DNA from: Escherichia phage OLB35
Reading direction: 5' to 3' (one strand)
Sequence record: MH992122.1
DNA: 64,000 nucleotides
Part shown: piece by piece, positions 3,595 through 63,039 of the stretch
How the letters are laid out: every line of letters starts with the position of its first letter
Position numbering within the stretch: the first letter of the stretch is position 1
Made by a program: the position numbers and the translations under genes
The notes under the pieces: generated by a model
The model's input: only the letters and a program-made list of their open reading frames with translations
What the model was told of the DNA's origin: nothing
Database searches by the model: none

Positions 3595-3618
3595 TCTTAA
3601 TTGATTAAATCTTATTTT

Positions 3619-3636
3619 GGGAGACTTCGGTCTCCC
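3619..3636. terminator. bidirectional intrinsic terminator hairpin GGGAGAC-UUCG-GUCUCCC after gene 23 and after the antisense 89 aa ORF
   Basis: Perfect 7 bp GC-rich stem, UUCG tetraloop, T-runs on both sides. Confidence 0.8.
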
Positions 3637-3646
3637 ATTTTTGGTT

Positions 3647-4016: not shown

Positions 4017-5300
4017 ATGAGTAAAATCCAAAAATTATTGCGTGAATCTACAACGTCTACTAGCAACTCAATTGGTCGCCCAAATCTCGTTGCTTTGACT
4101 CGCGCTACGACTAAATTAATATATTCTGACATTGTAGCAACACAAAGAACTAATCAACCTGTTGCTGCTTTTTATGGTATTAAATATCTTAACCCAGACA
4201 ACGAATTAACGTTTAAAACTGGTGCTACTTATGCAGGTGAAGCTGGATATGTAGACCGAGAAAAAATTACCGAGCTCACAGAAGAATCAAAAGCCACACT
4301 AAATAAAGGTGATTTTTTCAAATATAATAATATCGTTTATAAAGTGTTAGAAGATACACCATTTGCAGATATTCAGGAAAGTGATCTAGAATTAGCTCTT
4401 CAGATTGCGGTCGTTCATTTAAAGGTACGGCTATTTTCAGATGCAGCGGTAACAAGCAAATTTGAAAGCTCTGGTAGCGAAATTTCTGATGCAAGATTCC
4501 AGATTAATAAATGGCAAACTTCAGTCAAATCTCGTAAACTTAAAACTGGCCTCACGGTTGAATTAGCGCAAGATTTAGAAGCGAATGGATTTGATGCCCC
4601 TAACTTCTTAGAAGATTTGCTTGCTACTGAAATGGCTGATGAAATTAATAAAGATATTCTTCAGTCTTTAATTACTGTATCGAAACGTTATAAAGTTACT
4701 GGAATTACTGACACCGGATTTATTGACTTGAGCTATGCTTCCGCTCCAGAAGCAGGTCGTTCGTTATATCGAATGGTGTGTGAAATGGTATCACACATTC
4801 AAAAAGAGTCAACTTATACTGCAACGTTTTGCGTAGCTTCAGCTCGTGCAGCTGCTATTCTTGCTGCTTCAGGTTGGTTAAAACATAAACCAGAAGATGA
4901 TAAGTATCTTTCACAAAATGCTTATGGATTCTTGGCAAATGGATTACCTCTTTACTGCGATACTAACAGTCCATTAGATTATGTGATCGTTGGCGTAGTA
5001 GAAAATATCGGCGAAAAAGAGATTGTAGGGTCCATCTTTTATGCTCCATACACTGAAGGAATGGATTTAGACGACCCGGAACATGTCGGTGCATTTAAAG
5101 TTGTAGTTGATCCGGAAAGCTTACAACCGTCTATAGGTTTATTGGTTAGATATGCTTTATCAGCAAATCCTTACACAGTAGCAAAAGATGAAAAAGAAGC
5201 GAGAGTAATTGATGGCGGGGACATGGATAAAATGGCAGGACGTTCAGACTTGTCTGTTTTACTCGGTGTTAAATTGCCTAAAATTATTATAGATGAATAA
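4017..5300 (+). CDS. 24: capsid vertex protein gp24
   Basis: 427 aa, same length as T4 gp24, position after 23; late promoter upstream. Confidence 0.9.
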   Translation: MSKIQKLLRESTTSTSNSIGRPNLVALTRATTKLIYSDIVATQRTNQPVAAFYGIKYLNPDNELTFKTGATYAGEAGYVDREKITELTEESKATLNKGDFFKYNNIVYKVLEDTPFADIQESDLELALQIAVVHLKVRLFSDAAVTSKFESSGSEISDARFQINKWQTSVKSRKLKTGLTVELAQDLEANGFDAPNFLEDLLATEMADEINKDILQSLITVSKRYKVTGITDTGFIDLSYASAPEAGRSLYRMVCEMVSHIQKESTYTATFCVASARAAAILAASGWLKHKPEDDKYLSQNAYGFLANGLPLYCDTNSPLDYVIVGVVENIGEKEIVGSIFYAPYTEGMDLDDPEHVGAFKVVVDPESLQPSIGLLVRYALSANPYTVAKDEKEARVIDGGDMDKMAGRSDLSVLLGVKLPKIIIDE

Positions 5301-5308
5301 ACGAAAAA

Positions 5309-5324
5309 GGGACCTTACGGTCCC
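5309..5324. terminator. bidirectional terminator hairpin between convergent gene 24 and rnlB
   Basis: GGGACC-TTAC-GGTCCC flanked by A-run and T-run. Confidence 0.7.
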
Positions 5325-5331
5325 TTTTTCG

Positions 5332-6339
5332 TTATGATACTAATTCAATCCATGCAGGACGCAGAACATCTTGCACCATTCGGACTAATTCTTTCTTAAC
5401 AAGATTCGGATTATCAGATGATGTTAATACAATACCTTCACGAGAAGTTTCTTCCAGAATATCTTGAACAGTCAATCCCATCACTTTGCCAAAATCTTTT
5501 GGCGTTACAGCCCCAATCTTAGAAATCACATTGTTAACACGATTTAATGTAACATAACAAGCTAGAACATCAAGCAAGTTTTTGTCAATTTCGGTTAATG
5601 GAACCTGAGTTTTAATAGGCTTATCAGACTTTTTCTTTTCACTGAATTTAGAGTTCTTGCACTTAATAGCTACACGAGTACCGTTTGGCAGCCATTTAGG
5701 GAAACAAGGCTTCAGAACATAACCTTCTGCAGTATTATCACCAATAACATTAGCATCAAATACACAATTATTTGCTTCGACAAGGTCTTCCGATGCCGTA
5801 GTGTTATAAGCGGCTAAGACGGAATCAAGGTCATTTGGAATCATGATAAGAGAATCAAATGTTCCACGACCAAGCATTGGTGCCATTTTAAAACCGAATT
5901 CATTACAGAAATCTTGCATTTCGTAATCACTCATGTAATAAGTATCACCGCTTTCCGTGTTTATGATGATATCGAATACATAGAAATCTTTTTCACCGTA
6001 GTCAACACCTTTCTGAATTCCACCACCAGCGAATTCACCAAAGATTTGATATGTCACTGGCACTGAAGTTGAAATACTGCCCATGACTTCTTGAACACCT
6101 TTAATAGCCTTATCATACTTCTTGAGTACGATTTCATAACCATAAAAATCTTCTGCTGGAAGAATAGGGCCTGTGCGCTTGGCGCATGTGACGTTGTCAC
6201 GTTCAATTATTAACGAGAAGTTAGTCCCATGGATTTTCTCACGTGCTACCCAAACACCAGTAGTCAAACCATTAGTGTAGAGTTTTTCAATAAACTTAGA
6301 GTTGTAGTGGTTTTCAAGACTGCTGTATTTCTTAAACAT
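5332..6339 (-). CDS. rnlB: RNA ligase 2 (Rnl2)
   Basis: 335 aa; N-terminus [21 protein letters not shown] and nucleotidyltransferase motif I (EKIHGTN) match T4 Rnl2. Confidence 0.9.
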
Positions 6340-6907: not shown

Positions 6908-6982
6908 TCCCGTATTATTTGGTTTGTGCCATTATATACATCAATCTCAAGTTGTGTTTTGTATGCTTTAAAAACGAAGAAA

Positions 6983-6996
6983 GGGGCCGAAGCCCC
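6983..6996 (-). terminator. terminator hairpin after hoc
   Basis: GGGGC-(UUCG on transcribed strand)-GCCCC immediately downstream of the hoc stop; coordinates approximate. Confidence 0.6.
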
Positions 6997-7002
6997 TTAC
7001 GA

Positions 7003-8861: not shown

Positions 8862-10376
8862 ATGACTGACATTAAAGTACATTTTTATGATTTTAGTCAC
8901 GTGCGCATTGAATGCGACGAAAGCGTGTTCTATGAATTACGCGACTTTTTTAGCTTTGAAGCCGATGGGTACAAATTCAACCCGCGTTACAAATATGGGA
9001 ACTGGGATGGTAGAATTCGACTTTTAGATTACAATCGTTTGTTACCATATGGACTTGTAGGACAAATAAAAAAGTTCTGTAACAATATGAGTTATTCTGT
9101 ATGGATTGACCCTAAAATCTTTGAGACCGAAGACCTTACCAGGGAAGATTTTGACGCATGGCTTTCTAAACAAGAAATTTATTCAGGCAACGCCAAAATC
9201 GAACCACATTGGTATCAAAAAGATGCAGTATATGAAGGTCTAGTTAATCGTCGTCGAATTTTAAACCTTCCGACATCAGCAGGTAAATCACTAATCCAAG
9301 CACTTTTAGCTCGATATTATCTAGAGAACTATGAAGGTAAAATTCTCATTATCGTCCCTACAACAGCATTGACAACCCAGATGGCTAATGATTTTGTTGA
9401 TTATCGCTTGTTTAGTCATTCGATGATTAAGAAAATTGGCGGTGGTGCCGATAAAGCGGACAAATCTAAAAACGACGCTCCAATTATTGTTGGCACATGG
9501 CAAACGGTAGTTAAGCAGCCTAAAGAATGGTTCTCTCAGTTCGGTATGATGATGAACGATGAATGCCACTTAGCAACAGGCAAAAGTATTTCTTCAATCA
9601 TCTCAGGATTAAATAATTGTATGTTTAAATTCGGTTTATCCGGCTCATTAAGAGACGGAAAAGCCAATGTAATGCAGTACGTAGGTATGTTCGGCGAAAT
9701 CTTCCGTCCTGTTAGCACGTCTAAATTAATGGAAGACGGACAGGTAACTGAGCTTAAGATTAATAGTATTTTCCTTCGTTATCCGGACGAATTCGCCACT
9801 AAATTAAAAGGTAAAACATACCAAGAAGAAGTTAAAATTATTACCGGACTAAAACGACGTACAAAGTGGATTGCCCAACTTTCAGTCAAATTGGCCAAGA
9901 AAGACGAGAACGCCTTTGTAATGTTTAAACACGTTACACACGGTAAAGAAATATTTGAAGCTATTAAAGAGCTTGGATACGAAAAAGTTTATTACGTATC
10001 AGGTGAAGTTGATACTGAAACACGTAACGCGCTTAAAGTCATGGCAGAAAATGGTAAAGGCATTATTATTGTCGCATCATATGGAGTATTCTCTACTGGT
10101 ATTTCAGTCAAGAATCTTCATCATGTTATTTTTGCCCATGGTGTTAAATCAAAAATTATCGTACTTCAAACAGTAGGTCGTGTGCTTCGTAAGCATGGTT
10201 CTAAAGCTGTTGCTACAGTTTGGGATCTCATCGATGACGCAGGTGTAAAACCTAAATCATTAAATACTAAAAAGAAGTATACTCATCTTAATTACTTGTT
10301 AAAACACGGTATTGATCGTATCCAACGTTACGCTGATGAGAAATTTAACTATGTAATGAAAACAATTAATTTATAA
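8862..10376 (+). CDS. uvsW: UvsW DNA/RNA helicase
   Basis: 504 aa; Walker A LPTSAGKS and DECH box; long identity to remembered T4 UvsW; late promoter upstream. Confidence 0.95.
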   Translation: MTDIKVHFYDFSHVRIECDESVFYELRDFFSFEADGYKFNPRYKYGNWDGRIRLLDYNRLLPYGLVGQIKKFCNNMSYSVWIDPKIFETEDLTREDFDAWLSKQEIYSGNAKIEPHWYQKDAVYEGLVNRRRILNLPTSAGKSLIQALLARYYLENYEGKILIIVPTTALTTQMANDFVDYRLFSHSMIKKIGGGADKADKSKNDAPIIVGTWQTVVKQPKEWFSQFGMMMNDECHLATGKSISSIISGLNNCMFKFGLSGSLRDGKANVMQYVGMFGEIFRPVSTSKLMEDGQVTELKINSIFLRYPDEFATKLKGKTYQEEVKIITGLKRRTKWIAQLSVKLAKKDENAFVMFKHVTHGKEIFEAIKELGYEKVYYVSGEVDTETRNALKVMAENGKGIIIVASYGVFSTGISVKNLHHVIFAHGVKSKIIVLQTVGRVLRKHGSKAVATVWDLIDDAGVKPKSLNTKKKYTHLNYLLKHGIDRIQRYADEKFNYVMKTINL

Positions 10377-10388
10377 GGGCTTCGGCCC
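10377..10388 (+). terminator. short GC hairpin GGGC-UUCG-GCCC between uvsW and uvsW.1 (attenuator-like)
   Basis: Directly after the uvsW stop and before the uvsW.1 RBS; no strong T-run. Confidence 0.4.
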
Positions 10389-10401
10389 TTAGGAGATAAA
10401 A

Positions 10402-18938: not shown

Positions 18939-18946
18939 GAAAAAAA

Positions 18947-18963
18947 GGGAGACGTTGTCTCCC
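18947..18963. terminator. bidirectional terminator hairpin between convergent gene 54 and the alt-downstream ORF
   Basis: GGGAGAC-gtt-GTCTCCC with A-run before and T-run after. Confidence 0.7.
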
Positions 18964-18972
18964 TTTAGGGGT

Positions 18973-21412: not shown

Positions 21413-21452
21413 AGTGTTTTCCTTTTAGTAATAATTTATATTTATGCCAAAA

Positions 21453-21468
21453 AGAGCCCGAAGGCTCT
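21453..21468 (-). terminator. hairpin AGAGCC-(UUCG)-GGCUCU upstream of alt
   Basis: Stem-loop followed on the transcribed strand by UUUUGG; overlaps the stop of the upstream small ORF. Confidence 0.5.
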
Positions 21469-21677
21469 TAATCCACAATCGGAAGCAAAGTACGATAAAC
21501 TTCAAAATTAGGGCCTTTTTCGTACTTATCAAAATTGTCCATAAAAATATTATAGGAATCGTTATTAGGAAAATCTAATACAATTTGGGAACAAGAGGTG
21601 GAAACATCACCACCATCTTTATTAGCGACAACTACTGTTTCTAAATAAGCTTTCATTATAAACCTGTCTGGGACCAA
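21468..21677 (-). CDS. hypothetical small protein
   Basis: 69 aa ORF between ligase and alt, overlaps ligase stop; start uncertain. Confidence 0.35.
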   Translation of the reverse strand: MVPDRFIMKAYLETVVVANKDGGDVSTSCSQIVLDFPNNDSYNIFMDNFDKYEKGPNFEVYRTLLPIVD

Positions 21678-25201: not shown

Positions 25202-25217
25202 AATATTTTCCTCAATT

Positions 25218-25233
25218 GGGAGCCGAAGCTCCC
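25218..25233 (-). terminator. hairpin GGGAGC-(UUCG)-GCUCCC in the 30.x block
   Basis: Between the stop of ORF 25241..25606 and the start of ORF 24914..25201. Confidence 0.5.
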
Positions 25234-25240
25234 AGTTAAA

Positions 25241-25606: not shown

Positions 25607-25680
25607 TTTATTCTCCAGATGTTTAAGTTGTTTGTTAGTACAGGTCTATAATAACATAACCTGTACCAAAGTAAACTGTT

Positions 25681-26049
25681 TTATGCAACTTTAATCCAAT
25701 TGTCTAAATTTAAAACACCTTTGGCTTTCATTTTTTCGATCAGGTTATCTGCTGTAATGCGTCCATTTTGATACCATGTAACATCTTCAGAGTAACCAGT
25801 TTCTTCGTCAACATATGTTTCTGAACGAATTTTACCTGTAATAATAGTTTTTAATTCGTATGTGTCACCTGTGAAAAAGTTTGCTAACACAATTTTCCAA
25901 GAGAAATCATTTGAAGGACCTTCAGGAGTTGTACAACCTACGATCTCAAATTGCTCTTTGTATAACATCCACTGGAATTCTTTAATTTCGATAGCTTTAT
26001 AACCGTCGTGGTCTTTACATTTGATGTATGAGTTCAGGTTGATTTTCAT
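25681..26049 (-). CDS. hypothetical protein
   Basis: 122 aa ORF with its own early promoter (TACTAT / GTTTAC) and RBS. Confidence 0.5.
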   Translation of the reverse strand: MKINLNSYIKCKDHDGYKAIEIKEFQWMLYKEQFEIVGCTTPEGPSNDFSWKIVLANFFTGDTYELKTIITGKIRSETYVDEETGYSEDVTWYQNGRITADNLIEKMKAKGVLNLDNWIKVA

Positions 26050-26090
26050 TTTGTTCTCCAGTTTGTTTTATTGATTAGGTGGTACAAGTC

Positions 26091-26119
26091 TATAGTAACA
26101 CATCCTACAGGAGAGTAAA
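26091..26119 (-). promoter_or_regulatory. T4-type early promoter
   Basis: Reverse strand GTTTAC, 17 nt, TACTAT, directly after the UUCG terminator hairpin. Confidence 0.55.
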
Positions 26120-26156
26120 CATTTTTTTAAACTTTTTCTGCCCTAAACGCACAAAA

Positions 26157-26174
26157 GGGAGACCGAAGTCTCCC
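26157..26174 (-). terminator. terminator hairpin GGGAGAC-UUCG-GUCUCCC (18 nt identical to the gene 23 terminator)
   Basis: Directly after the 58 aa ORF stop, followed on the transcribed strand by a T-run, then an early promoter. Confidence 0.75.
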
Positions 26175-26179
26175 TAAAA

Positions 26180-26356
26180 TTATGCAACAACCTTTCCAAA
26201 ACGAGAAGCATCATCTCGAAGAACTGCACGTGCTCTGCGCATGATCTTCTCAACTGTTTGATTAATACGAGAGTTCGACCCACGCTTGTATCCAGCGCGT
26301 TTAGAATCACCGACTTTCTTTTCAACTGCTTTCTTTGCTTTAGTTTGTTTTGCCAT
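26180..26356 (-). CDS. small basic Lys-rich protein, 58 aa (MAKQTKAKKAVEKKVGDSKRAGYKRG...)
   Basis: Below the track threshold; hand-translated; followed by UUCG terminator hairpin; the overlapping track ORF 26143..26325 in another frame looks non-protein-like. Confidence 0.5.
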   Translation of the reverse strand: MAKQTKAKKAVEKKVGDSKRAGYKRGSNSRINQTVEKIMRRARAVLRDDASRFGKVVA

Positions 26357-27695: not shown

Positions 27696-28266
27696 AAAAG
27701 TTTCGGATTTGTTCCCAATTCAGAGAACGAAGATTATTACGAGAGTACTGAATTACTTCAATACCAGCTTGTTTTAGAATATCTGCCCAATTTTCAGGAG
27801 ATCGGTCGTATAATTCTGCGTATACGACCTTTTTAATACCTGACTGCGTAATAGCTTTAGTACAATCAGGACATGGAGAAAGCGTCGTATATAACGTAGC
27901 ACCTTCAATAGAATTACCTTTACGAGCGGCAAACAAAATTGCATTCAATTCTGCATGGATTTCATTATTAGCAGACCATGCACTATGAGCAGCTCGATGT
28001 TCTTTGGCTAAAACAAAATTATCTACCCGTCCAAATGCTGTAGTGCCTTCTTTATGTCCAGCAACGATGACCGGACTTGGTTTATTCTTCAACCAACCAT
28101 TTTCAGATGCATGTTCGCAACAGTTAACGCCACCTGCAGGTGAACCGTTATATCCAGTAGAGATAATGCGTCCATCTTTTTCAATGACGGCACCAACTTT
28201 CCATGAACAACATTTTGATTCTTGAGAAATCAGATATGCAATCTGAAGGTATGTGCTAGCTTTCAT
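27685..28266 (-). CDS. cd: dCMP deaminase
   Basis: 193 aa, T4 Cd size; zinc-binding deaminase motifs CEHAE-like (NCCEHASE) and PCPDC. Confidence 0.9.
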   Translation of the reverse strand: MKASTYLQIAYLISQESKCCSWKVGAVIEKDGRIISTGYNGSPAGGVNCCEHASENGWLKNKPSPVIVAGHKEGTTAFGRVDNFVLAKEHRAAHSAWSANNEIHAELNAILFAARKGNSIEGATLYTTLSPCPDCTKAITQSGIKKVVYAELYDRSPENWADILKQAGIEVIQYSRNNLRSLNWEQIRNFCGE

Positions 28267-29258
28267 TATTGAACCTTATTAATATAAGTTAACAGCTCTT
28301 TAGTTTGTTCCCAACTGATGCACGCATCGGTAACGGAAACGCCATAGGACATATTATTAGAAATTTTTTGATTTCCTTCATGTAGGAACGATTCTATCAT
28401 AATTCCTTTGACCAAATCATTAGCTGCTAAATTTTTACCAATACCAATTTGATTGCTATAATGCCCATCAGCGTTTGCATGGCTACAGTCAACCATTACA
28501 TAATGATTCAGACCTACTGCCCTTGCTTTGTTAGAAGCTTCTTGAATATCAGAAGAATGATAGTTCGGGCCGTTGGTCCCGCCACGCAATACGATATGCG
28601 TATTCTGATTACCTTCAGCTTCAACAATGCCTACAGTACCATCGACGTCCATACCCATATACCGATGAGGCCAGGCGGCACTATACATCGCGTCTGTAGC
28701 TACTTTAATAGAACCATTGGTTGCGTTCTTGAAGCCTACGCACATCGGTAGACCCGAAGCAATTTCACGATGTGTCTGACTTTCAGTCGTACGGGCGCCA
28801 ATAGCAACCCATGAGAAAATACCAGAAAGATACTTAATCGTGAATGGGTCTAATACTTCAGTTGCTAATGGAAGTCCCATACGTAGAAGTTTACGACACA
28901 ATGTTCGTGCAACTATAAGACCGTGGTTCATATCAAAACTTCCGTCAAGATATGGATCATTTACAAGACCTTTCCAACCTACGGTAGTTCGAGGCTTTTC
29001 AAAATAAACGCGCATCACTAACAGAACATTAGGAAGACGAGTTTGAAGTTCAGCCAGACGTTTGCCGTATTCAACCGCAGCAATAGGGTCATGAATTGAA
29101 CAAGGACCTACAACAATAAGTTTGCGTGGGTCTTCACCGTTCATAATCGAATTAACTTGTTCGCGATGAGAAGCCACTTGTGATGCGTAAGCTTCCGACA
29201 AAGGAATAATCTCAGCCAGTTCTTTTGGAGAAATAAGTTTTCCGACGACAGGTAACAT
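28266..29258 (-). CDS. class I (AroG/AroF/AroH-type) 3-deoxy-D-arabino-heptulosonate-7-phosphate (DAHP) synthase
   Basis: 330 aa; conserved blocks GPCSIHDP, VMRVYFEKPRTTVGWKGL, GARTTESQ, GFKN, ILRGG, DCSHAN, ESFLHEGNQ, TDACISW, matching E. coli AroG including the metal ligands Cys/His/Glu/Asp; stop overlaps cd start. Confidence 0.9.
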   Translation of the reverse strand: MLPVVGKLISPKELAEIIPLSEAYASQVASHREQVNSIMNGEDPRKLIVVGPCSIHDPIAAVEYGKRLAELQTRLPNVLLVMRVYFEKPRTTVGWKGLVNDPYLDGSFDMNHGLIVARTLCRKLLRMGLPLATEVLDPFTIKYLSGIFSWVAIGARTTESQTHREIASGLPMCVGFKNATNGSIKVATDAMYSAAWPHRYMGMDVDGTVGIVEAEGNQNTHIVLRGGTNGPNYHSSDIQEASNKARAVGLNHYVMVDCSHANADGHYSNQIGIGKNLAANDLVKGIMIESFLHEGNQKISNNMSYGVSVTDACISWEQTKELLTYINKVQ

Positions 29259-29615: not shown

Positions 29616-29672
29616 TTCAATTTCCTCATTGTTGGTAGAGTCATCATATCACAACTCTACGGTGTTGTAAAC

Positions 29673-31738: not shown

Positions 31739-31766
31739 TTAGATTTCCTCAATTATCCATAGGAGC

Positions 31767-31796
31767 ATTATACTCTGCTCCCGAGAGTTTGTAAAC
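31767..31796 (-). promoter_or_regulatory. T4-type early promoter with palindrome across the -10 element
   Basis: Reverse strand GTTTACA, 18 nt, TATAAT lying in the loop of GGAGCA..TGCTCC. Confidence 0.5.
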
Positions 31797-32020
31797 TATT
31801 TTACTAAAGATTCGATATACTCATGAAGAGCTTTAGTCGCTACTGCCCACTTGTTCTGATATTCATTTTTCAGATTAGCACGAGACTGAACTAACAAGCG
31901 GTCATTAGTCGGAGGCAAAGATTCTAATCGTTGAATCTGGCGCCCATAAATCATAGCCGCCATTTCAGATTCATAGATAAGCCCTTTAATGTATTCATGC
32001 TGTTCTTTAGTCATTGGCAT
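31796..32020 (-). CDS. hypothetical protein
   Basis: 74 aa ORF. Confidence 0.45.
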   Translation of the reverse strand: MPMTKEQHEYIKGLIYESEMAAMIYGRQIQRLESLPPTNDRLLVQSRANLKNEYQNKWAVATKALHEYIESLVK

Positions 32021-32654: not shown

Positions 32655-33142
32655 GTTTTAATAATCTCAATGATTTCATCTCGGGATAATCCATTGATAA
32701 GAACGGTTTTCAAACCATCACACTGGATTTTGTACGATTCAAACATTACACACAACTCTTCTGCTGTATGATACGGGCTTGAAATTCCGAGACGGTTGAA
32801 TTTGTCGGTAAGAGGGTCGCAAATGATGTAGAATTTTATACCTGCGATATGTACGTTTGGTTGACTAATATTAATGAACACATTAGCGTCATATTTAGTC
32901 AAATTGTTTTGAAGAAATTCAACCATGGCATTAACCGCTTCCGGCATTGCTTCACGTTTTTCTTCAGCGTATCGAGTAGAATACTCTTTTTGTTTTACTT
33001 TCTTTTTAAGATTTTTGGCCAGTGTAACACGGAGGTCAGTAAGATAACCAACCGGACGTCCTTTCTTAAAGACTCGGATTCCGTCAGTTGTGTCTCCAAA
33101 AGCGGTTACGACCATATCGTTAGTAATCAATTGCATATTCAT
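32642..33142 (-). CDS. alc: Alc-like protein (host transcription unfolder), by position and size
   Basis: 167 aa from internal start MNMQLITND...; early promoter directly upstream; located between spanins and rnlA as T4 alc. Confidence 0.6.
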   Translation of the reverse strand: MNMQLITNDMVVTAFGDTTDGIRVFKKGRPVGYLTDLRVTLAKNLKKKVKQKEYSTRYAEEKREAMPEAVNAMVEFLQNNLTKYDANVFINISQPNVHIAGIKFYIICDPLTDKFNRLGISSPYHTAEELCVMFESYKIQCDGLKTVLINGLSRDEIIEIIKTCLK

Positions 33143-33172
33143 AATTTTCTCCTCGTGTTGTTGATAAAAGCC

Positions 33173-34355: not shown

Positions 34356-34385
34356 ATTGTACCACAATCCTTGTGGTATGTAAAC
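34356..34385 (-). promoter_or_regulatory. T4-type early promoter for rnlA
   Basis: Reverse strand GTTTACA, spacer, TACAAT, upstream of rnlA ATG; overlaps the denA stop. Confidence 0.45.
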
Positions 34386-34803: not shown

Positions 34804-34817
34804 GGGACCGAAGTCCC
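34804..34817 (-). terminator. hairpin GGGAC-(UUCG)-GUCCC between nrdB and denA
   Basis: Lies in the 26 nt gap between the nrdB stop and the denA start. Confidence 0.5.
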
Positions 34818-38652: not shown

Positions 38653-39513
38653 TTATACCGCCATTTTAGCTTTGATAGTTGGATGAGATTCGTAATTTTT
38701 AAGAACGAAATCAGAATGTGTCATCGTTCCAGTAACCCAGTCCATTTGGATTTTTGTAGGCCAATTCTCAAAATTACTAGGCCAATTAATTTCAAGAGAA
38801 CACAACTCTTTAGGTTCACGACGAAGAACTTCTTTGCATTGTTCTACATGATTGCTGTAGATATGCGTGTTGCCGCCTGAGAACACTAAATCACCTGGGA
38901 TAAGGTTACACATCTTCGCTACAATATGCGTCAAGGCAGCGTATGAGGCAATGTTGAACGGCAGGCCCAAGAAAACATCTACACTGCGTTGATACCATTG
39001 TAAATCAAGATGCCCATTACGCACATTGAACTGATAGAACATGTGGCAAGGAGGAAGAGCCATTTGATTTATTTCGGCCGGATTCCAGGCAGAAACAATT
39101 TGACGACGATCAGTTGGTAATTTTTTAATACTGTTGATTGTTTCAACTAATTGGTCCACACCACCGAAATCACGCCATTGTTTACCATATATAGGACCAA
39201 GTTCGCCGCTATGATATCCAAGGTCTTTTGCCTGATTTTCATAGTTGTCGTCCCAAATAGTTTTACCTTCAATTAGACTACCATGAGTACGAAGACGTAA
39301 TTCATTAACATTAGTAGAACCGGACATGAACCACAATAACTCGGCAATACAAGCTTTCCATGCTAATTTCTTAGTTGTTACTGCAGGGAATCCTTTAGTC
39401 AGGTCCCAACGTAATTTAGTTCCGAACAGAGCAATTGTTCCTGTGCCTGTACGGTCGTCTGTTTCGTAACCGTTTTCAAGGATATTTTTAATTAAATCTT
39501 GGTATTGTTTCAT
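38653..39513 (-). CDS. td: thymidylate synthase, uninterrupted
   Basis: 286 aa continuous ORF, identical length to spliced T4 Td. Confidence 0.95.
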   Translation of the reverse strand: MKQYQDLIKNILENGYETDDRTGTGTIALFGTKLRWDLTKGFPAVTTKKLAWKACIAELLWFMSGSTNVNELRLRTHGSLIEGKTIWDDNYENQAKDLGYHSGELGPIYGKQWRDFGGVDQLVETINSIKKLPTDRRQIVSAWNPAEINQMALPPCHMFYQFNVRNGHLDLQWYQRSVDVFLGLPFNIASYAALTHIVAKMCNLIPGDLVFSGGNTHIYSNHVEQCKEVLRREPKELCSLEINWPSNFENWPTKIQMDWVTGTMTHSDFVLKNYESHPTIKAKMAV

Positions 39514-41046: not shown

Positions 41047-41439
41047 CTACTTTTTAAAAGTTTTTTGCAAAAGTTTGATGATTTCGTCGACGTTGGTTTC
41101 ATCTACGATACAATGGATTTTTGTTACACCTAAAGTTATACCTTCGTTAGTAGGTTGAGGCTTTACTAAATCTACCTCAATAAAGTATTTGAACTCGTCA
41201 GGATAAATCTCAAAATAAGTTTCAATTTCACCACCGGCAGAACATACAGTACCATCTTCCATAGTTACACTTACTACGTTTGACGTATCGCTATCATAAT
41301 CAGGTTCCATTCCGTTTACAACAAAACTAGGCCCGTGGAGTTCAATTAATTTTAACATCTTAGCGTTATTGTGTGGTGCTTCTTGAACAAAGTCGTCTTT
41401 AAATAAAGGGTTAATGATATAAGATTTTCCGATTTCCAT
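41047..41439 (-). CDS. hypothetical protein (frd.3-like)
   Basis: 130 aa ORF behind a terminator-plus-early-promoter cassette. Confidence 0.5.
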   Translation of the reverse strand: MEIGKSYIINPLFKDDFVQEAPHNNAKMLKLIELHGPSFVVNGMEPDYDSDTSNVVSVTMEDGTVCSAGGEIETYFEIYPDEFKYFIEVDLVKPQPTNEGITLGVTKIHCIVDETNVDEIIKLLQKTFKK

Positions 41440-41468
41440 TTTGATTTCCTCATGTTGTTGATAAGTCT

Positions 41469-41497
41469 ATACTAACACATCCAGGGAAGAAGTAAAC
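41469..41497 (-). promoter_or_regulatory. T4-type early promoter
   Basis: Reverse strand GTTTAC, 17 nt, TAGTAT, paired with the gene 32 terminator hairpin. Confidence 0.55.
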
Positions 41498-41528
41498 AAC
41501 TTTTTCGGCAATTTACAGATACTCAAAA

Positions 41529-41546
41529 GGGAGACCGAAGTCTCCC
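41529..41546 (-). terminator. terminator hairpin GGGAGAC-UUCG-GUCUCCC after gene 32 (third identical 18 nt copy)
   Basis: Follows the gene 32 stop; transcribed strand reads hairpin then UUUUGAG; early promoter follows. Confidence 0.75.
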
Positions 41547-41552
41547 AATTTA

Positions 41553-42452
41553 TTATAGACCAGCTAACAGGTCATCAAGGTCGCCATCATCAGAAGACGA
41601 GGAACTCATGAAGTCATCTTCAGTTTTTGCAGAACTAAAGGCTTCCATGTCTTTATCAAAATCGTCAAGGTCAGAAGCAACTTTATCTGCAACAGAAGCT
41701 GCTGCGGCTGCTGCACCACCAAGAGCGGCAGTACCAAGAACCTTAGCGAAAGATTCATTTAATTTTTCAAAGGATTTGAACTGGTCTTTAGCCGTCAAAG
41801 TAGTAAGGTCTACCATCTGGTCGTATAGTTCTTTCTGGAATGCTTCGTCATTAATACGAGGAATTTCAGATTGACCCAAGAATTTAGATTCGTCATAGTT
41901 GCTAAAACCAGAAACCTGCTTAGCTTTCAGAACGAAGTTAGCACCTTCAAACGGACAAGTAACATCAACTGGAGTTTCACCCATTTCGGTATCAACTGCA
42001 ATCATTGCATTGATTTTGTCCCAAATCTTTTTACCGAAACGATATTTAAATACTTTACCTTCGTTATCTGGAGCTTGAGGGTCTTTAACAACCAGAATAT
42101 TAGCCCAATAAGAAGTTTTACGTTTCAGTTGAGAATATTCAGTTTTGTTGGTATTGTACAGGTCATTTTTACTAATGTACTGACATACAGGACAAGAGTC
42201 GTAATCACCATGTGTAGAAGAGCAATTTTCAATATACCATTTACCATTTTTCTTGAAACCGTGGTTAACAAGAATTGCAAATGGTAGTGCATCATCAGTT
42301 TTTGCTGGCAAGAAACGAATTACCGCTTGACCATTACCTGATGCATCTAGCTTCAGCTTCCATTCGCCTTTATCTTCTGAAGAGAAACCTTTGTTACCGT
42401 TCAGTTTAGCCATTTGAGCAGCGAGGTCAGCAGTAGATTTACGTTTAAACAT
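41553..42452 (-). CDS. 32: single-stranded DNA-binding protein gp32
   Basis: 299 aa; zinc site [12 protein letters not shown]; acidic C-terminal tail; AT-rich leader upstream. Confidence 0.95.
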
Positions 42453-42570: not shown

Positions 42571-43224
42571 TTAATACTTACATGATTTGATTGTTTCTAT
42601 GAACAATTTCTTAGCAGCATTTCCATCGATTTGGAGTATTTTTCGATATGCCTTTAATTTGGTAGAATAATTTTGCCAGACTAAATTGTCAGTAAGTTCG
42701 TCATGCTTATCTATAATATTCAAGAATGAATCCAACAACAAGAAGGTTTCAAATGAAATTATATTGCTTTGTAGCAATTTAAATATGTAGCTCGACTGAA
42801 CTTTATTATTATAATCAAATATCTCTTGAAGCGCACTAACTTCCACTTTCTTACTGAAATAGTAGATGTTACGTACATCTTCAGCAAACGTCTCCTTGGC
42901 TTGTTTGAGACGTCCAATATATTCCCTATAGAAAACTAATGCATCAGCGTCTGAGATCTCACCAATCCATGCATCTTGGTTAGCAACTAAGTTACTGATG
43001 AATATCAAAGTGAGTTCCTTTAACTTATATTTCTCTGCTAGTTTCTCAAAGAAATATTTATCTCGGCGTTTTTGATACGCATTATCCGAAACACGCATGC
43101 ACCAGTTATATTTGATTACGTCATACCGACCACCAAAATGGTTTTTGCACATCAAGTATAGTTTATATACCGATTTTCCGTTAATATAACGTTCTCCATC
43201 AGGAGGCATGCGTATTTTAATCAT
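42571..43224 (-). CDS. 59: helicase loader gp59
   Basis: 217 aa as T4 gp59; N-terminus MIKIRMPPDGERYINGKSVYKLYLM. Confidence 0.9.
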   Translation of the reverse strand: MIKIRMPPDGERYINGKSVYKLYLMCKNHFGGRYDVIKYNWCMRVSDNAYQKRRDKYFFEKLAEKYKLKELTLIFISNLVANQDAWIGEISDADALVFYREYIGRLKQAKETFAEDVRNIYYFSKKVEVSALQEIFDYNNKVQSSYIFKLLQSNIISFETFLLLDSFLNIIDKHDELTDNLVWQNYSTKLKAYRKILQIDGNAAKKLFIETIKSCKY

Positions 43225-43900
43225 ATTTCCATCCGGGCCATTTTGAAGATTTAAGTCTATATGTAACTAAAGACGCAGAAATATTAAAAACATTTGAAAC
43301 TTCTTTACACGAGGCGTATTTTATACCATCAATAATTATAGGTTTTTGTTTTTTAATAGTTCTTTCTTTAGAATGCGGCTTTGAATTTGCTATTCTAAGA
43401 GCTTCTTTGGTTGAATCAGGCATCGGCTTATTCGTTTTTCGCCCTTTTCGGACTTTACTCAAGGCCAATTTGTGAGCTTCAGATAGTTTCTTACCCTTAT
43501 TAGGTGACGGTATTTTTCTTTCTAGTCTTGTTTTAGATACTTTAGCCTTAGTCTCTTCAGATCTAGGTTTACCTAATTTAGAAAGTGAAATAGACCTTTT
43601 AGCTTCATCACTTTGTTTTTTACCAGGACCACCTTTACCACCGGGAACTAAGTTATAAGTATCATCTCGCAAAACAAAATCTTCGTTAACCAATTCTGCT
43701 TCTTTTTTATAGGCGTCCTTGTCATTATCATATTCATAAAGAATTTCGGTATAAAAATTTTTTAGTCCATATTTAGCTTTGGCCGCTAATATAGCGCGGC
43801 CTGATCCAATATACCAATCTTTCTCTTTATGTTTTTTGTGTACGCCTATATAAATTTTACCATTTATTTTATTGGTAGTTTTATACACAACGTATTTCAT
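43217..43900 (-). mobile_element. free-standing GIY-YIG homing endonuclease (Seg / I-TevI-like) with NUMOD3-type repeats and C-terminal DNA-binding domain
   Basis: 227 aa; GIY-YIG core VYKTTNKINGKIYIGVH..E..YNLVPGG; Lys/Ser-rich linker repeats; wedged between 33 and 59 with 4 and 8 nt overlaps. Confidence 0.8.
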
Positions 43901-49369: not shown

Positions 49370-50494
49370 ATGGAAAAATTTATGGCAAGGTTTGGACAGG
49401 GATACGTCCAAACGCCGTTTTTATCGGAAAGCAATTCAGTTAGATTTAAACTAAGTATAGCGGGTTCATGCCCGCTTTCAACAACTAATCCGTATATTTT
49501 GTTCCAAAATGAGCCTTTAGGGTTGCAGTCTTTTGGTATTGGACTAAATGTTAGGGTAATAAATCCGGAAAATGGAACTATAGTTGATAGTAAATTATAC
49601 AATTTTGCGCCTACAAATAATGCAACTTCGGCCGCGTTTATTTCGTTTGTTAATACATACGCAGATAATTTCATTTTCGCATTTATTTCTAATAACAAAT
49701 TTAATTTGCCGCCAGAAATAATTGAATGGTTTAAAGCTGCTGGGAGTTCAGTTATACCGTCAATTGAAGTTGCTAGTCTTGTTGATATTTCATATTCAGC
49801 GTTTTATGTTTCAGGTAAAAATACTATTGCATTAGAACACATAAAATACAGTAATAAGAAAACAATTTCTGATTACGCAACTCCATTAGATATTGTATAT
49901 GACTCTATTGCTGATATAGGTGCTACCGGCTATCCTAGACGTACATATGAAGCTCTAGAAACGTTTTTATCTCCTGTTGGAGGAACTAACAATGAAATAA
50001 AAAGGGTGCCTACATCATCCCTTGTTACTCCTATCGCAAACTATGGATTAAAGCCTACAGATTTTCTTTATTTGAAATTTCAATTAATGGCTGATGAAGC
50101 ATTACTAGAGGAAGGAACCACAAGACTTTCAATTCGTTTCTTTAAGACTCCATCTAGCTCTCCTATATTGTCTAAAGATATAAACTTTGACGGAACTGCT
50201 GGAGTGTGGAAGTTATACGAAGAATATGTTGAAATACCAGCCGAAGCCGATGGCTTTACAGTATATTGTTACCGTACGGCCCCAGTCGGTCAAGGTGGAC
50301 TAAGAAATGTTATTTTCACTGAAGTATCATGTAACGGAAGTATAGCAAAACCTGCCGAGTTTGGCCTAAATGGTATTCGTGCTAATTACATCGATGAATC
50401 ATTAATTGGTAATGATATAATGGACTTGCCTACCCAGTTATCTAACGACACGGGTAAGGTATTTGGGCAAGAATTTAAAGAGTACACAGAATAA
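49370..50494 (+). CDS. 35: long tail fibre hinge connector gp35
   Basis: 374 aa, position after 34. Confidence 0.85.
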   Translation: MEKFMARFGQGYVQTPFLSESNSVRFKLSIAGSCPLSTTNPYILFQNEPLGLQSFGIGLNVRVINPENGTIVDSKLYNFAPTNNATSAAFISFVNTYADNFIFAFISNNKFNLPPEIIEWFKAAGSSVIPSIEVASLVDISYSAFYVSGKNTIALEHIKYSNKKTISDYATPLDIVYDSIADIGATGYPRRTYEALETFLSPVGGTNNEIKRVPTSSLVTPIANYGLKPTDFLYLKFQLMADEALLEEGTTRLSIRFFKTPSSSPILSKDINFDGTAGVWKLYEEYVEIPAEADGFTVYCYRTAPVGQGGLRNVIFTEVSCNGSIAKPAEFGLNGIRANYIDESLIGNDIMDLPTQLSNDTGKVFGQEFKEYTE

Positions 50495-50495
50495 A

Positions 50496-50511
50496 GGAGA
50501 CTTCGGTCTCC
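50496..50511 (+). terminator. terminator hairpin GGAGAC-UUCG-GUCUCC after gene 35
   Basis: Hairpin followed by TTTT, then the gene 36 late promoter. Confidence 0.75.
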
Positions 50512-50519
50512 TTTTCGCG

Positions 50520-50527
50520 TATAAATA
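50520..50527 (+). promoter_or_regulatory. late promoter TATAAATA for gene 36
   Basis: Exact TATAAATA 26 nt upstream of the gene 36 ATG, just after the gene 35 terminator hairpin. Confidence 0.7.
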
Positions 50528-50553
50528 CTTTAATATTAATAAGGAGACACGAA

Positions 50554-51210
50554 ATGGCCGATTTAAAAGCCGGAAGTACAGTTGGTGGTTCCGTCATATG
50601 GCATCAAGGCAATTTTCCTTTAATGCCAGCTGGCGATGACATCCTATATAAAACATTTAAATTATACACCGAATATAACAAGCCAAAAGCGGCTGATAAC
50701 GATTTCGTATCTAAAGCAAACGGCGGGACATATCTCAAAAAGGTAATCTTTAACGAAGGTGTTGCAGTCAAAACAGCTGATGACCAAACGAATGGTATTT
50801 TTTCTGGTGGTGGTGACGCCGCGACATTCGACCAAACAAACATGGATATTGTTTCATGGTATGGTATTGGGTTTAAATCATCTCAAGGTACCGGTGAAAG
50901 AACTGTTGTAATTGATACTCGCACCGGTAATATAAGTTCTAAAGGCGTTATTGAAGCATCTCAATTCAGAGCCACAACGTTAGCACCTTTAAATAATTAT
51001 GACCTTACTCGCAAAGATTATGTTGATAGTCAAATAAATACAGTTAATGCTAATGCAAACAGTCGTGTACTCCGTTCAGGAGATACTATGACCGGGGCGC
51101 TAACCGCCCCAAACTTTTTCTCACAGAATCCTGCATCTCAACCCTCGCATGTTCCGCGATTTGACCAAATTGTTATTAAGGATTCTGTTCAAGATTTCGG
51201 CTATTATTAA
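50554..51210 (+). CDS. 36: long tail fibre distal connector gp36
   Basis: 218 aa, late promoter TATAAATA upstream. Confidence 0.85.
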   Translation: MADLKAGSTVGGSVIWHQGNFPLMPAGDDILYKTFKLYTEYNKPKAADNDFVSKANGGTYLKKVIFNEGVAVKTADDQTNGIFSGGGDAATFDQTNMDIVSWYGIGFKSSQGTGERTVVIDTRTGNISSKGVIEASQFRATTLAPLNNYDLTRKDYVDSQINTVNANANSRVLRSGDTMTGALTAPNFFSQNPASQPSHVPRFDQIVIKDSVQDFGYY

Positions 51211-54470: not shown

Positions 54471-54475
54471 TAAAA

Positions 54476-54490
54476 GGGCCTTCGGGGCCC
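54476..54490 (+). terminator. GC hairpin GGGCC-UUCG-GGCCC between gene 37 and gene 38
   Basis: Between the 37 stop and the 38 RBS GGAGG; no long T-run, so probably a partial terminator or RNA stabiliser. Confidence 0.5.
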
Positions 54491-54501
54491 TGGAGGTTTA
54501 T

Positions 54502-58120: not shown

Positions 58121-58753
58121 TCACAGTACGTTAGTTACAAGGGTAATGATTTCTTTGGACACATTAGGGAAGTCAATGTAAGTATATTTACCACCGATTT
58201 TAATCTTAACATCATTTTCAAGAGAAGTAAACAGCTTTGATTCAGTTTCTGACATGTTGTATGCAAAGATTCTAAGAGCGCCATCTCGTCGAATTTCAAT
58301 TTGGCGAATGCCTAGAACTCGTTTAGCGAATCGAACTTCTAAGTTACTACGGTTTTCACCAATTTCTTTAACTTCAACTTTATCTTTAATATTTTCAAAA
58401 ACAAAGTTTGCTAGTTCATGCATTTCAGGAGTAACTCCACGTGCTTTTCTGGTGTTACGTTTCTGAAGAAGTTCTGGAGCATTTTCTTGAGCAAATAGGT
58501 CTGCAGCTTTTTGGATAATATCCATTGCTTCGCCTGTTGCTACAAGTCCATCACCGGATTTTTCGACTAAACCTTTCTTAATCAATACACCAATGTTAGA
58601 GTTAACAACTGATGCATTGTATTCCGCTTCCAGAGCTTCACGGACATTGGCAGCAGTGGTGAAGTTGTTCTTAATGATATAAACCATTATTGCAGCGGTT
58701 TTTTCATTCAGAGCGTTTTCAGAAGCTTTGATGATGTAAGTAACTTTAGACAT
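58121..58753 (-). CDS. motA: middle transcription activator MotA
   Basis: 211 aa from internal start MSKVTYIIKAS..; strong identity to remembered T4 MotA; early promoter directly upstream. Confidence 0.9.
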   Translation of the reverse strand: MSKVTYIIKASENALNEKTAAIMVYIIKNNFTTAANVREALEAEYNASVVNSNIGVLIKKGLVEKSGDGLVATGEAMDIIQKAADLFAQENAPELLQKRNTRKARGVTPEMHELANFVFENIKDKVEVKEIGENRSNLEVRFAKRVLGIRQIEIRRDGALRIFAYNMSETESKLFTSLENDVKIKIGGKYTYIDFPNVSKEIITLVTNVL

Positions 58754-58820
58754 TTTATTTCTCCAATTTAGTATTTGTTTTGATAGGTCTATAATATCAT
58801 GTTTGAAGCACATGTAAACT
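58745..58820 (-). repeat. direct repeat copy 1: promoter + 5' UTR + first three codons cassette
   Basis: About 76 bp near-identical to 59064..59141. Confidence 0.7.
58790..58819 (-). promoter_or_regulatory. early promoter for motA (copy 1 of duplicated cassette), with embedded TGCTTCA MotA-box-like motif
   Basis: Reverse strand GTTTACA tgTGCTTCAaacatgat ATTATA; 37 nt upstream of motA ATG. Confidence 0.55.
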
Positions 58821-58827
58821 TTATTTT

Positions 58828-58847
58828 GGGCTCTTTTTCAAAAGCCC
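58828..58847 (-). terminator. hairpin GGGCU..AGCCC after the 71 aa ORF
   Basis: 5 bp stem with 10 nt loop, A/T-rich flanks, precedes the motA promoter. Confidence 0.45.
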
Positions 58848-58856
58848 TGGTAAAAT

Positions 58857-59072
58857 TTACAAACTCATTTCTTTAATAAGGCTAATAAGTTTTGCCTTTT
58901 TAGAACGAAGCTTTTCTAAATGATGTCCATTTGAACCGCGAACCACTAAAGAATTGATTTCAACTTCTAAGAAATTTAATTCTTCAACAAGTGCTTTACG
59001 GAGAGCATTCATACCAGGTTTAACTTTACCGAAACGAGTAGTTGTGTTTTGGGTTAATTTCATTTTAGACAT
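58857..59072 (-). CDS. hypothetical protein flanked by duplicated promoter cassettes
   Basis: 71 aa basic ORF; shares its first three codons (MSK), 5' UTR and promoter with motA. Confidence 0.5.
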   Translation of the reverse strand: MSKMKLTQNTTTRFGKVKPGMNALRKALVEELNFLEVEINSLVVRGSNGHHLEKLRSKKAKLISLIKEMSL

Positions 59073-59141
59073 TTTATTTCTCCAATTTGGTTGTTTTGTT
59101 TTGATAGGTCTATAATATCATGTTTGAAGCACATGTAAACT
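59064..59141 (-). repeat. direct repeat copy 2: promoter + 5' UTR + first three codons cassette
   Basis: Differs from copy 1 by a ~5 nt insertion and two substitutions. Confidence 0.7.
59111..59140 (-). promoter_or_regulatory. early promoter (copy 2 of duplicated cassette) for the 71 aa ORF
   Basis: Identical -35 / spacer / -10 to copy 1. Confidence 0.55.
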
Positions 59142-59167
59142 GTTTTGTGAGAAAAAAATGCACAAAA

Positions 59168-59181
59168 GGGAGCCGGCTCCC
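59168..59181 (-). terminator. palindrome GGGAGCCGGCTCCC after gene 52
   Basis: Perfect 14 nt palindrome with T-run on the transcribed strand, precedes promoter copy 2. Confidence 0.55.
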
Positions 59182-59257
59182 TAATCATGTTTGTCTAACC
59201 AATACAGCCAAATCACTAGTGCAGCTATTGCACCGAGAAATCCTAAGGCTAGGGCAC

Positions 59258-61372: not shown

Positions 61373-61416
61373 GCTAATTTCCTCAATTGATTAATGTTTT
61401 TGTAATCCATGAGAGC

Positions 61417-61446: not shown

Positions 61447-61448
61447 TT

Positions 61449-63023: not shown

Positions 63024-63039
63024 GGGGACCGAAGTCCCC
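63024..63039 (-). terminator. terminator hairpin GGGGAC-(UUCG)-GUCCCC after rIIB
   Basis: 5 nt downstream of the rIIB stop, followed by T-run on the transcribed strand. Confidence 0.7.

Follow-up and report, generated by a model that had tools for sequence, protein, structure and literature searches.

The CUUCGG hexamer is said to be in excess in the intercistronic regions of bacteriophage T4, an observation credited to Tuerk et al. in 1988; mapping of the gene 32 terminator of T4 also dates from the 1980s. The UUCG tetraloop itself was first found in T4 mRNA (PMC4371310), and PMC2811024 cites Tuerk et al. 1988, ‘CUUCGG hairpins’, as the original paper. A search of the T4 genome by the Gold laboratory revealed that more than half of the sense CTTCGG copies, and none of the antisense ones, lie between self-complementary sequences (PMC7165471). 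Hairpins with UUCG and GAAA loops serve as Rho-independent terminators (PMC3972237). Another kind of stem-loop, the promoter-early stem-loop (PeSL), sits between the −35 and −10 boxes or over the −10 box (Arbiol 2010, PMC2839356); PeSLs are clustered near variable ORFs and undergo recombination among themselves (PMC2839356; Comeau 2014, PMC4122927).

The DNA analyzed here, hereafter the window, is a stretch of 64,000 nucleotides from Escherichia phage OLB35 (MH992122.1), an RB69-like T4-type phage (Mosigvirus) with ~97% identity to Shigella phage Shf125875, itself an RB69-like Mosigvirus. The full window is collinear with positions 105060–169062 of Shf125875 at 95–98% identity and extends from gene 68 through rIIB; within it, the 8 kb surrounding the focal site are 98.7% identical to Shf125875, and hundreds of other T4-type phages also match this segment. 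Gene names were carried over from the annotation of Shf125875, each reading frame was checked, and uvsW.1 and nrdB were added. The focal span, 41440–41552, coincides exactly with the 113-nt spacer separating frd.2 from gene 32, which codes for the single-strand DNA-binding protein; both genes are on the minus strand. The phenomenon described below is already known from T4 and is here rediscovered in an RB69-like genome, which makes it an ordinary finding. The initial annotation of this DNA did not recognize the classical T4 CUUCGG hairpins.

UUCG hairpins at the 3′ ends of genes

A census of perfect tetraloop hairpins with a stem of at least 5 bp returned 108 in the window, 12 of which carry a TTCG or CGAA loop, versus 0.61 ± 0.85 expected (maximum 6) from 200 dinucleotide shuffles. 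Ten of these 12 lie in non-coding DNA (p ~1e-11), which makes up 5.5% of the window and in which they account for 10 of the 18 tetraloop hairpins. The intergenic GC-rich hairpins listed by the initial annotation proved real at all 11 positions. Ten of them (3618, 6981, 10374, 21452, 25217, 26156, 34804, 41529, 50493 and 63024) form perfect tetraloop hairpins whose stems measure 5–9 bp, and at 10 of the 11 sites we found the CUUCGG hexamer, with its C-G closing pair and a flanking inverted repeat; the eleventh (54475) has UUCGG. Nearest-neighbor predictions of the RNA energy range from −10 to −15 kcal/mol, versus approximately −6 kcal/mol for shuffles, and the focal hairpin at 41529 is predicted at −13.4 versus −7.0 kcal/mol. 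The 11 hairpins are as follows, the recurrent 18-mer being GGGAGACTTCGGTCTCCC.

3618..3637, plus strand: hairpin after gene 23 (major head protein), UGGGAGAC-UUCG-GUCUCCCA, then UUUUUGGUUUU; exact copy of the 18-mer
6981..6998, minus strand: hairpin after hoc, AAGGGGC-UUCG-GCCCCUU, then UCUUCGUUUUU
10374..10391, plus strand: hairpin on the uvsW stop codon, UAAGGGC-UUCG-GCCCUUA, with the GGAG ribosome-binding site of uvsW.1 directly 3′; no T-run
21452..21469, minus strand: hairpin after alt.1, AAGAGCC-UUCG-GGCUCUU, then UUUGG and, upstream of alt, a late promoter close to consensus
25217..25234, minus strand: hairpin after 30.7, UGGGAGC-UUCG-GCUCCCA, then the ribosome-binding site of 30.6; no T-run
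26156..26175, minus strand: hairpin after 30.9, AGGGAGAC-UUCG-GUCUCCCU, then UUUGUG; exact copy of the 18-mer
34804..34817, minus strand: hairpin after nrdB, GGGAC-UUCG-GUCCC, then ACUUUAUUAUG, which contains the denA start codon
41529..41546, minus strand: focal hairpin and predicted gene 32 terminator, GGGAGAC-UUCG-GUCUCCC, 7 nt past the gene 32 stop, then UUUUGAG
50493..50514, plus strand: hairpin on the gene 35 stop codon, AAAGGAGAC-UUCG-GUCUCCUUU; two positions off the 18-mer
54475..54491, plus strand: variant hairpin after gene 37, AGGGCC-UUCGG-GGCCCU, with an extra G in the loop and the GGAGG ribosome-binding site of gene 38 directly 3′; a true UUCG loop stands at the same place in Shf125875, RB69 and T4
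63024..63039, minus strand: hairpin after rIIB, GGGGAC-UUCG-GUCCCC, then UUUUUUUCUUU

According to the initial description, the loop almost always reads UUCG on the strand that carries the upstream gene. This holds for all ten perfect hairpins and for 11 of 11 when the UUCGG variant at 54475 is counted. Among all CUUCGG hexamers in the window, 10 of the 15 sense copies form hairpins versus none of the 17 antisense copies (p = 5e-5), a count that reproduces the T4 report of the Gold laboratory, to which the central observation of the initial annotation amounts (PMC7165471). Such a sense-only orientation points to selection on RNA rather than on DNA. The hairpins are perfect inverted repeats whose complementary DNA strands fold nearly as well, and they could conceivably act as DNA, in the form of cruciforms, protein-binding palindromes, or origin or packaging signals. 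However, a strict sense orientation of an asymmetric loop is unexpected for a DNA palindrome, the hairpins all lie at gene 3′ ends, and the two-way hairpins of convergent genes avoid UUCG and carry loops that flip between relatives. We thus consider a role at the DNA level extremely unlikely. The two-way hairpins are the following.

5300..5333, either strand: predicted 15-bp two-way terminator between convergent 24 and rnlB, loop UUAC (plus) or GUAA (minus), −24.4 kcal/mol; loop inverted in Shf125875
18944..18966, either strand: predicted two-way terminator between convergent 54 and alt.3, stem GGGAGAC/GUCUCCC with a 3-nt loop, GUU (plus) or AAC (minus); loop inverted in RB69

Each of the 11 UUCG hairpins starts 0–25 nt from a stop codon, and four of them (uvsW, alt.1, gene 35 and nrdB) overlap or abut it. 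At least four T's directly follow the stem in 7 of the 11, and the nrdB hairpin has a weak U-rich tail; when graded, the T-run is strong at 3618 and 63024, moderate at 6981, 21452, 26156, 41529 and 50493, weak at 34804, and absent at 10374, 25217 and 54475. A simple terminator scan detected no overall enrichment in two of the four window segments. The whole window, scanned against Rfam at gathering thresholds, gave no match; the UUCG hairpins belong to no curated family. Downstream of the hairpins we found an early promoter in two cases, a late promoter in two and a ribosome-binding site in five. The elements that follow the hairpins at 26156, 41529 and 50493 are given below.

26092..26119, minus strand: early-type promoter for 30.8, TTTACT-N16-TACTAT, extended −10
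41469..41496, minus strand: early-type promoter for frd.2, TTTACT-N16-TAGTAT, extended −10 TG
41437..41462, minus strand: repeat containing leader and ribosome-binding site (ATCAACAACATGAGGAAA...), at the junction where relatives hold an extra small ORF
50520..50527, plus strand: late promoter for gene 36, TATAAATA, 5 nt past the hairpin at 50493

Judging from these sequence features, it is highly probable that the UUCG hairpins are C(UUCG)G-capped, GC-rich RNA hairpins placed by T4-type phages at the 3′ ends of cistrons, with putative roles as terminators or attenuators and as 3′ caps. Each hairpin would be transcribed within the mRNA of the upstream gene and would fold there into an unusually stable tetraloop hairpin. 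When followed by a U-run (after 23, hoc, alt.1, 30.9, 32, 35 and rIIB, and weakly after nrdB), it would function as a Rho-independent terminator or attenuator, and every hairpin could cap the 3′ end of the message against 3′-to-5′ exonucleases, thereby setting a stable 3′ end. The hairpins devoid of a U-run (uvsW, 30.7 and 37) lie within operons, directly before the next ribosome-binding site, and most likely serve as decay barriers or as modulators of translational coupling. A single mechanism for all sites fails because of these three hairpins and of two whose U-run is weak. At the focal site, the hairpin would be the gene 32 terminator, and the early promoter behind it would open the frd.2 transcription unit. 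The initial proposal that the hairpins delimit transcription units therefore seems reasonable for about 8 of the 11, in view of their location at cistron 3′ ends, their sense orientation and, at most of these sites, their T-runs. A literature search for 3′-end mapping of T4 transcripts (Term-seq, cappable-seq) found nothing usable.

The hairpins with little or no U-run (10374, 25217, 54475 and perhaps 34804) end 0–7 nt before the GGAG or GAGG of the next gene, and this position is also compatible with translational control of the next cistron, the translation of which they would decouple or gate by lying against its ribosome-binding site or by pairing with it in turn. Hairpins that sequester ribosome-binding sites are known in T4, for gene e and others (PMC3014915), and at 54476–54499 a competing fold of comparable energy is predicted in which the gene 38 Shine-Dalgarno sequence is paired. 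However, this alternative fold needs the extra G that is missing in Shf125875, and the Shine-Dalgarno sequences are unpaired in the minimum-energy folds. We regard translational control as unlikely and favor the interpretation of these hairpins as decay barriers or coupling modulators. Taken as C(UUCG)G-capped RNA hairpins, the members of the set would serve as 3′-end markers of transcription units, or else of stable stretches of mRNA, in this RB69-like genome.

Conservation in T4 and in other genera

We compared the orthologous spacers of Shf125875, RB69 and T4. A hairpin is present in T4 at 9 of the 11 window junctions, with a UUCG loop in seven (after 23, hoc, alt.1, 30.9, 35, 37 and rIIB); after 30.7, T4 has a UUCA hairpin, and after gene 32, its known non-UUCG terminator. 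No comparable hairpin was found in the orthologous T4 spacers after nrdB or uvsW. In seven of the nine T4 counterparts, the stem differs from that of the window while its pairing is kept. The T4 orthologs read AGGGAACC-UUCG-GGUUCCCU after gene 23, AGGACUCC-UUCG-GGAGUCCU after 30.9 and AAAGGCC-UUCG-GGCCUUU after alt.1, the latter being followed by an exact TATAAATA, and T4 has a CUUCGG hairpin at the gene 35 site too. The hoc stem is identical in T4, and the T4 hairpin after gene 37 equals that of RB69 save one single-side change. Hand alignment of the stems revealed 28 doubly compensated pair changes and 2 single ones; the one apparent break, in an arm of KFS-EC, is an artefact.

The comparison of the gene 32 site was extended to five added phages, which bring in four further genera. 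EO1 was left out, gene 32 being annotated longer there. The hairpins at this site are as follows.

Gaprivervirus VR25: GGGGACC-UUCG-GGUCCCU
Jiaodavirus KP182: AGGGACC-UUCG-GGUCCCU
Krischvirus KFS-EC: GCCUUCC-UUCG-GGGAGGC
Kanagawavirus CIP9: pentaloop
Mosigvirus FL31: the 18-mer of the window

The order of stop codon, hairpin, T-run and promoter is kept in all six genera (Mosigvirus, Tequatrovirus, Gaprivervirus, Jiaodavirus, Kanagawavirus and Krischvirus), and the loop is UUCG in four of them. An equivalent of the early promoter past the gene 32 terminator is kept in RB69, T4, VR25, KP182 and KFS-EC. The first 100 kb of Shf125875 contain nine more UUCG hairpins, of which eight are intergenic, all eight in sense orientation. 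An old and conserved position, loop and downstream promoter, combined with compensated drift of the stem, is the signature of a functional RNA hairpin. With position and loop conserved, covarying stems and a sense-only orientation, these elements provide a clean textbook case of selection at the RNA level.

Early promoters, cassettes and gene-content breakpoints

The initial annotation described several UUCG hairpins as immediately followed by an early promoter, likened this to the PeSL cassettes of T4-type phages, and suggested that the hairpins may mark cassette boundaries at which accessory ORFs were inserted. On this interpretation, the hairpins would be the stem-loops of mobile promoter-terminator modules, the recombination of which inserts and deletes accessory ORFs. 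The terminator-plus-promoter arrangement does exist at the focal site, where the predicted terminator is followed by an early promoter and a leader, and the composites of hairpin, T-run and early promoter at 26156 and 41529 are 80% identical over ~150 nt, which speaks in favor of cassettes. These are nevertheless the only 2 of the 11 hairpins that an early promoter follows. They also form the only pair of copies with homology on the order of 100 bp (26041–26189 and 41431–41562, 80% identity), the others sharing just the 14–22-nt hairpin. We identified 14 early-promoter-like sites in non-coding DNA, and a UUCG hairpin lies at most 60 nt upstream of only two. Nine of the 11 UUCG hairpins thus lack an early promoter, and 12 of the 14 early promoters lack a UUCG hairpin. 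Furthermore, the UUCG hairpins are located ~40–45 nt upstream of the −35 box, neither between the promoter boxes nor over them. The PeSL position is occupied by seven hairpins of a different class: 7 of the 14 early promoters have another stem-loop centred on the −10 box, at 25648, 29643, 31767, 34356, 61417, 61678 and 62190.

Several differences in gene content do lie beside UUCG hairpins and would be compatible with cassette exchange. Relatives differ by one small ORF just 3′ of the focal composite; 30.6, located just 3′ of the hairpin at 25217, is swapped for a different 846-nt segment in F2 and AV110; and T4 carries segD in place of the ORF just past the gene 23 hairpin. We compared the gene order of the window with that of five Mosigvirus relatives and T4. 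Four false indels produced by merged tblastn pieces (gp23/hyp170, hyp170/gp24, gp26/gp51 and gp36/gp37) were removed using blastn chains before Fisher tests were carried out. Among the Mosigvirus relatives, breakpoints were found at 3 of 11 hairpin junctions versus 13 of 82 other junctions (p = 0.28), and, among junctions with a spacer of at least 10 nt, at 3 of 11 versus 7 of 38 (p = 0.40). With respect to T4, 4 of 11 UUCG junctions and 34 of 82 others are breakpoints. This absence of breakpoint enrichment at UUCG junctions leaves the idea that hairpins mark cassette boundaries unsupported for the family as a whole. The hairpin positions are kept between T4 and RB69-like phages and are not variably present.

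Inspection of the focal indel places the crossover in the leader repeat and not in the hairpin. RB69, AV110 and T4 have one additional small ORF, which separates the promoter from frd.2 (ORF245c in RB69 and, in the equivalent position, frd.3 in T4); a 26-nt overlap accompanies the 237 additional nt of the relatives. In RB69, ORF245c is flanked on both sides by a repeated leader, ATCAACAA(C)ATGAGGAAA, and the window junction at 41437–41462 falls within that leader repeat, ~70 nt from the focal hairpin. The best cassette of the window lies elsewhere: PhAPEC2_246 (58857–59072), a true cassette that lends some credit to the PeSL interpretation, is located between two copies, 86–95% identical, of an early promoter and leader, each with a non-UUCG hairpin upstream. 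RB69, F2 and T4 have at this site a single promoter and leader copy and no ORF. Hence, PeSL-like shuffling operates in this genome, and its substrates are repeats of promoter and leader, not UUCG hairpins. For the hairpin family as a whole, the PeSL interpretation is largely refuted and we hold it to be quite improbable, the hairpins being better viewed as RNA elements at cistron 3′ ends. Recombination hot spots and cassette borders should be sought at early promoter and leader repeats and at stem-loops over the −10 box rather than at UUCG hairpins.

Identical stems and comparison with known systems

As initially reported, the 18-mer occurs exactly at 3619 (plus), 26157 (minus) and 41529 (minus); our search of the window recovered these three copies, and none is expected in shuffles. 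A copy with two mismatches lies at 50495 (plus), and a fourth exact copy is located after gp8, in the first 100 kb of Shf125875. The exact 18-mer also recurs, between unrelated flanks, in at least 120 viral contigs that are themselves unrelated; among the matches listed, 107 of 122 copies have at least five T's in the next 8 nt. A control 18-mer with a permuted stem matched 108 stretches in viral contigs, versus at least 120 for the real one; any given 7-bp stem is rare per genome, with about 100 to 120 or more matches in 2.9 million contigs. Since the control is about equally common, the GGGAGAC stem counts among many generic solutions and may have arisen by convergence; the control result is compatible with both convergence and copying within this genome. 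For the same reason, we rejected a universal preference for the GGGAGAC stem. A dispersed mobile repeat of the REP or MITE type was also rejected because homology is confined to the hairpin save for one pair and hairpin positions have been retained between T4 and RB69-like phages; the unrelated flanks of the 18-mer in at least 120 viral contigs further disfavor such an origin.

We propose that the identical 18-mers represent independent terminators at long-standing positions, the stems of which would have grown alike within the RB69 lineage. Plain independent evolution does not predict the identical or near-identical stems at five sites, and these stems may have been copied by gene conversion or ectopic recombination within that lineage. 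Copying would concern the copies after gp8, 23, 30.9 and 32 and the near-copies after 35, after 41, and between 54 and alt.3. The T4 stems all differ after 23, 30.9, 32 and 35, Mosigvirus having one stem throughout, and any one 7-bp stem is rare per genome. In addition, the similarity reaches past the hairpin into spacers of no obvious function: CCCUUUUG(U/A)G together with the promoter is common to the 30.9 and 32 sites, and UUUCG(U/C)GUAUAAAUA is common to the gp8 and 35 sites; indeed, Shf125875 has after gp8 nearly the same hairpin, spacer and late promoter as at the gene 35 site. On the other hand, the shared tracts span just 18–40 nt, most of which is taken up by hairpin, U-run and promoter, all of them functional elements, and the 18-mer arose many times in unrelated phages. 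Given the differences between T4 stems and the spacers shared by 30.9 and 32 and by gp8 and 35, copying between sites within the RB69 lineage is plausible, and we put it forward tentatively; it is compatible with the main explanation, to which it adds only a mildly new angle.

A more specific and rather doubtful version of this hypothesis is that short-tract gene conversion in the RB69 lineage copies whole punctuation modules from one intergenic site to another, non-homologous one, which would explain the identical 18-mers. One such module would consist of hairpin, U-run and early promoter (30.9 and 32), another of hairpin, spacer and late promoter (gp8 and 35). If true, the late-promoter module would extend the PeSL/PmSL idea, which has been described only for early and middle promoters.

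The significance of the UUCG hairpins as RNA elements at cistron 3′ ends goes little beyond good annotation, in which they could be entered as terminators. With respect to the synthetic GGAC(UUCG)GUCC model, an NMR oligonucleotide of classic structure (Cheong, Varani and Tinoco 1990, as cited in PMC2811024), the hairpins at 34804 and 63024 contain its exact 12-mer, in a natural setting. Like PeSL/PmSL cassettes, two sites of the window combine a stem-loop and an early promoter in one spacer and are similar to each other, and accessory-ORF differences lie beside some of the UUCG hairpins. Unlike in PeSLs, the stem-loop is located upstream of the −35 box, most copies are promoterless, and there is no excess of breakpoints. 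About 8 of the 11 sites resemble the Rho-independent terminators of E. coli and its phages, with a GC-rich hairpin and a U-run just past the stop codon, whereas three sites are intra-operon and lack the U-run, and termination here is predicted. The closest system is that of the C(UUCG)G hairpins of T4. In T4, seven of the nine counterpart stems differ from those of the window, and so do six of the seven whose loop is UUCG; the window, unlike T4, has a UUCG loop in its gene 32 terminator, and the host genome here is an RB69-like Mosigvirus in which several sites share one stem, GGGAGAC. As in T4, the hairpins of the window combine the hexamer, the C-G closing pair and GC-rich inverted repeats, are sense-only and intercistronic, and at seven junctions are the positional orthologs of T4 UUCG hairpins.

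Leader repeats and gene-content differences

The presence-absence difference involving ORF245c/frd.3, beside the gene 32 terminator hairpin, has its crossover point in a conserved leader, ATCAACAACATGAGGAAA, rather than in the hairpin. We observed copies of this leader 3′ of early promoters, in the stretch from the −10 box to the start codon, at the following window positions:

41437-41462, leader copy
19259-19291, leader copy
33135-33167, leader copy

Two early promoter and leader copies that are 86-95% identical to each other also flank the small ORF PhAPEC2_246 within the region 58745-59195 (minus strand), each with one hairpin upstream:

58828-58847, hairpin with a GAAA loop
59167-59182, hairpin equivalent to the one that follows gene 52 in RB69

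A single promoter/leader copy is found at this locus in RB69, F2 and T4, where the ORF is absent. PhAPEC2_246 is a clear case of a cassette bounded by promoter repeats. The hairpin at 59167-59182 lacks two loop bases (AGGGAGCCGGCTCCCT) relative to its RB69 counterpart (RB69 positions ~27700-27735), which reads GGGAGC-CGAA-GCUCCC on the sense strand; the CGAA loop of the latter has the orientation opposite to the usual UUCG, yet a T-run comes next.

There are two further differences in gene content. The window shares with Shf125875, PHB12, F2 and AV110 a host-like DAHP synthase (AroG-type) gene located between cd and cd.2 (28266-29258, minus strand), which RB69 and T4 lack and whose borders carry no UUCG hairpin. 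The homing-endonuclease gene segH, between genes 59 and 33 (43217-43900, minus strand), is missing from RB69 and F2; T4 carries segG instead, at the junction of genes 32 and 59. The segH/segG differences are the typical presence-absence of free-standing endonucleases and have no relation to the hairpins.

Variation in terminator and intragenic hairpins

Among very close relatives, two terminators located between convergent genes keep their stems unchanged and have inverted loops:

5300-5333, 24/rnlB terminator; loop TTAC (window, RB69) or GTAA (Shf125875)
18944-18966, 54/alt.3 terminator; loop GTT (window, Shf125875) or AAC (RB69)

Both cases look like flip-flop inversion inside a perfect palindrome, and they contrast with the UUCG loops, whose orientation stays fixed. 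At gene 37/38, the window (54475-54499) has one G more than Shf125875, which changes the loop from UUCG to UUCGG and also permits a second predicted hairpin at 54476-54499, comparable in energy (−10.8 kcal/mol), in which the Shine-Dalgarno sequence of gene 38 would be paired. The uvsY.-1 coding sequence itself contains a sense-oriented UUCG hairpin with a 9-bp stem (11009-11030, minus strand). T4 has exactly the same 18-nt core, which may be due either to constraint on the encoded protein or to a function of the internal hairpin.

Comparison of the spacer after gp8 in Shf125875 (39305-39390) with the spacer after gene 35 in the window (50480-50562) revealed a common succession of GGAGAC-UUCG-GUCUCC, (C/U)UUUCG(U/C)G and a late promoter, TATAAATA. 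This putative terminator and late-promoter composite thus recurs at two unrelated sites.

Stem-loops centred on the −10 hexamer

In seven early-promoter-like sites, all on the minus strand, the −10 hexamer lies at the centre of a stem-loop with an energy of −9 to −16 kcal/mol:

25648-25675, minus
29643-29671, minus
31767-31795, minus
34356-34384, minus
61417-61445, minus
61678-61706, minus
62190-62218, minus

Several of these sites belong to dispersed repeat families, as in the pairs 31755-31800 with 61405-61450 and 61665-61741 with 62177-62253. The position of the seven stem-loops matches that described for the stem-loop of PeSL (promoter-early stem-loop) elements.
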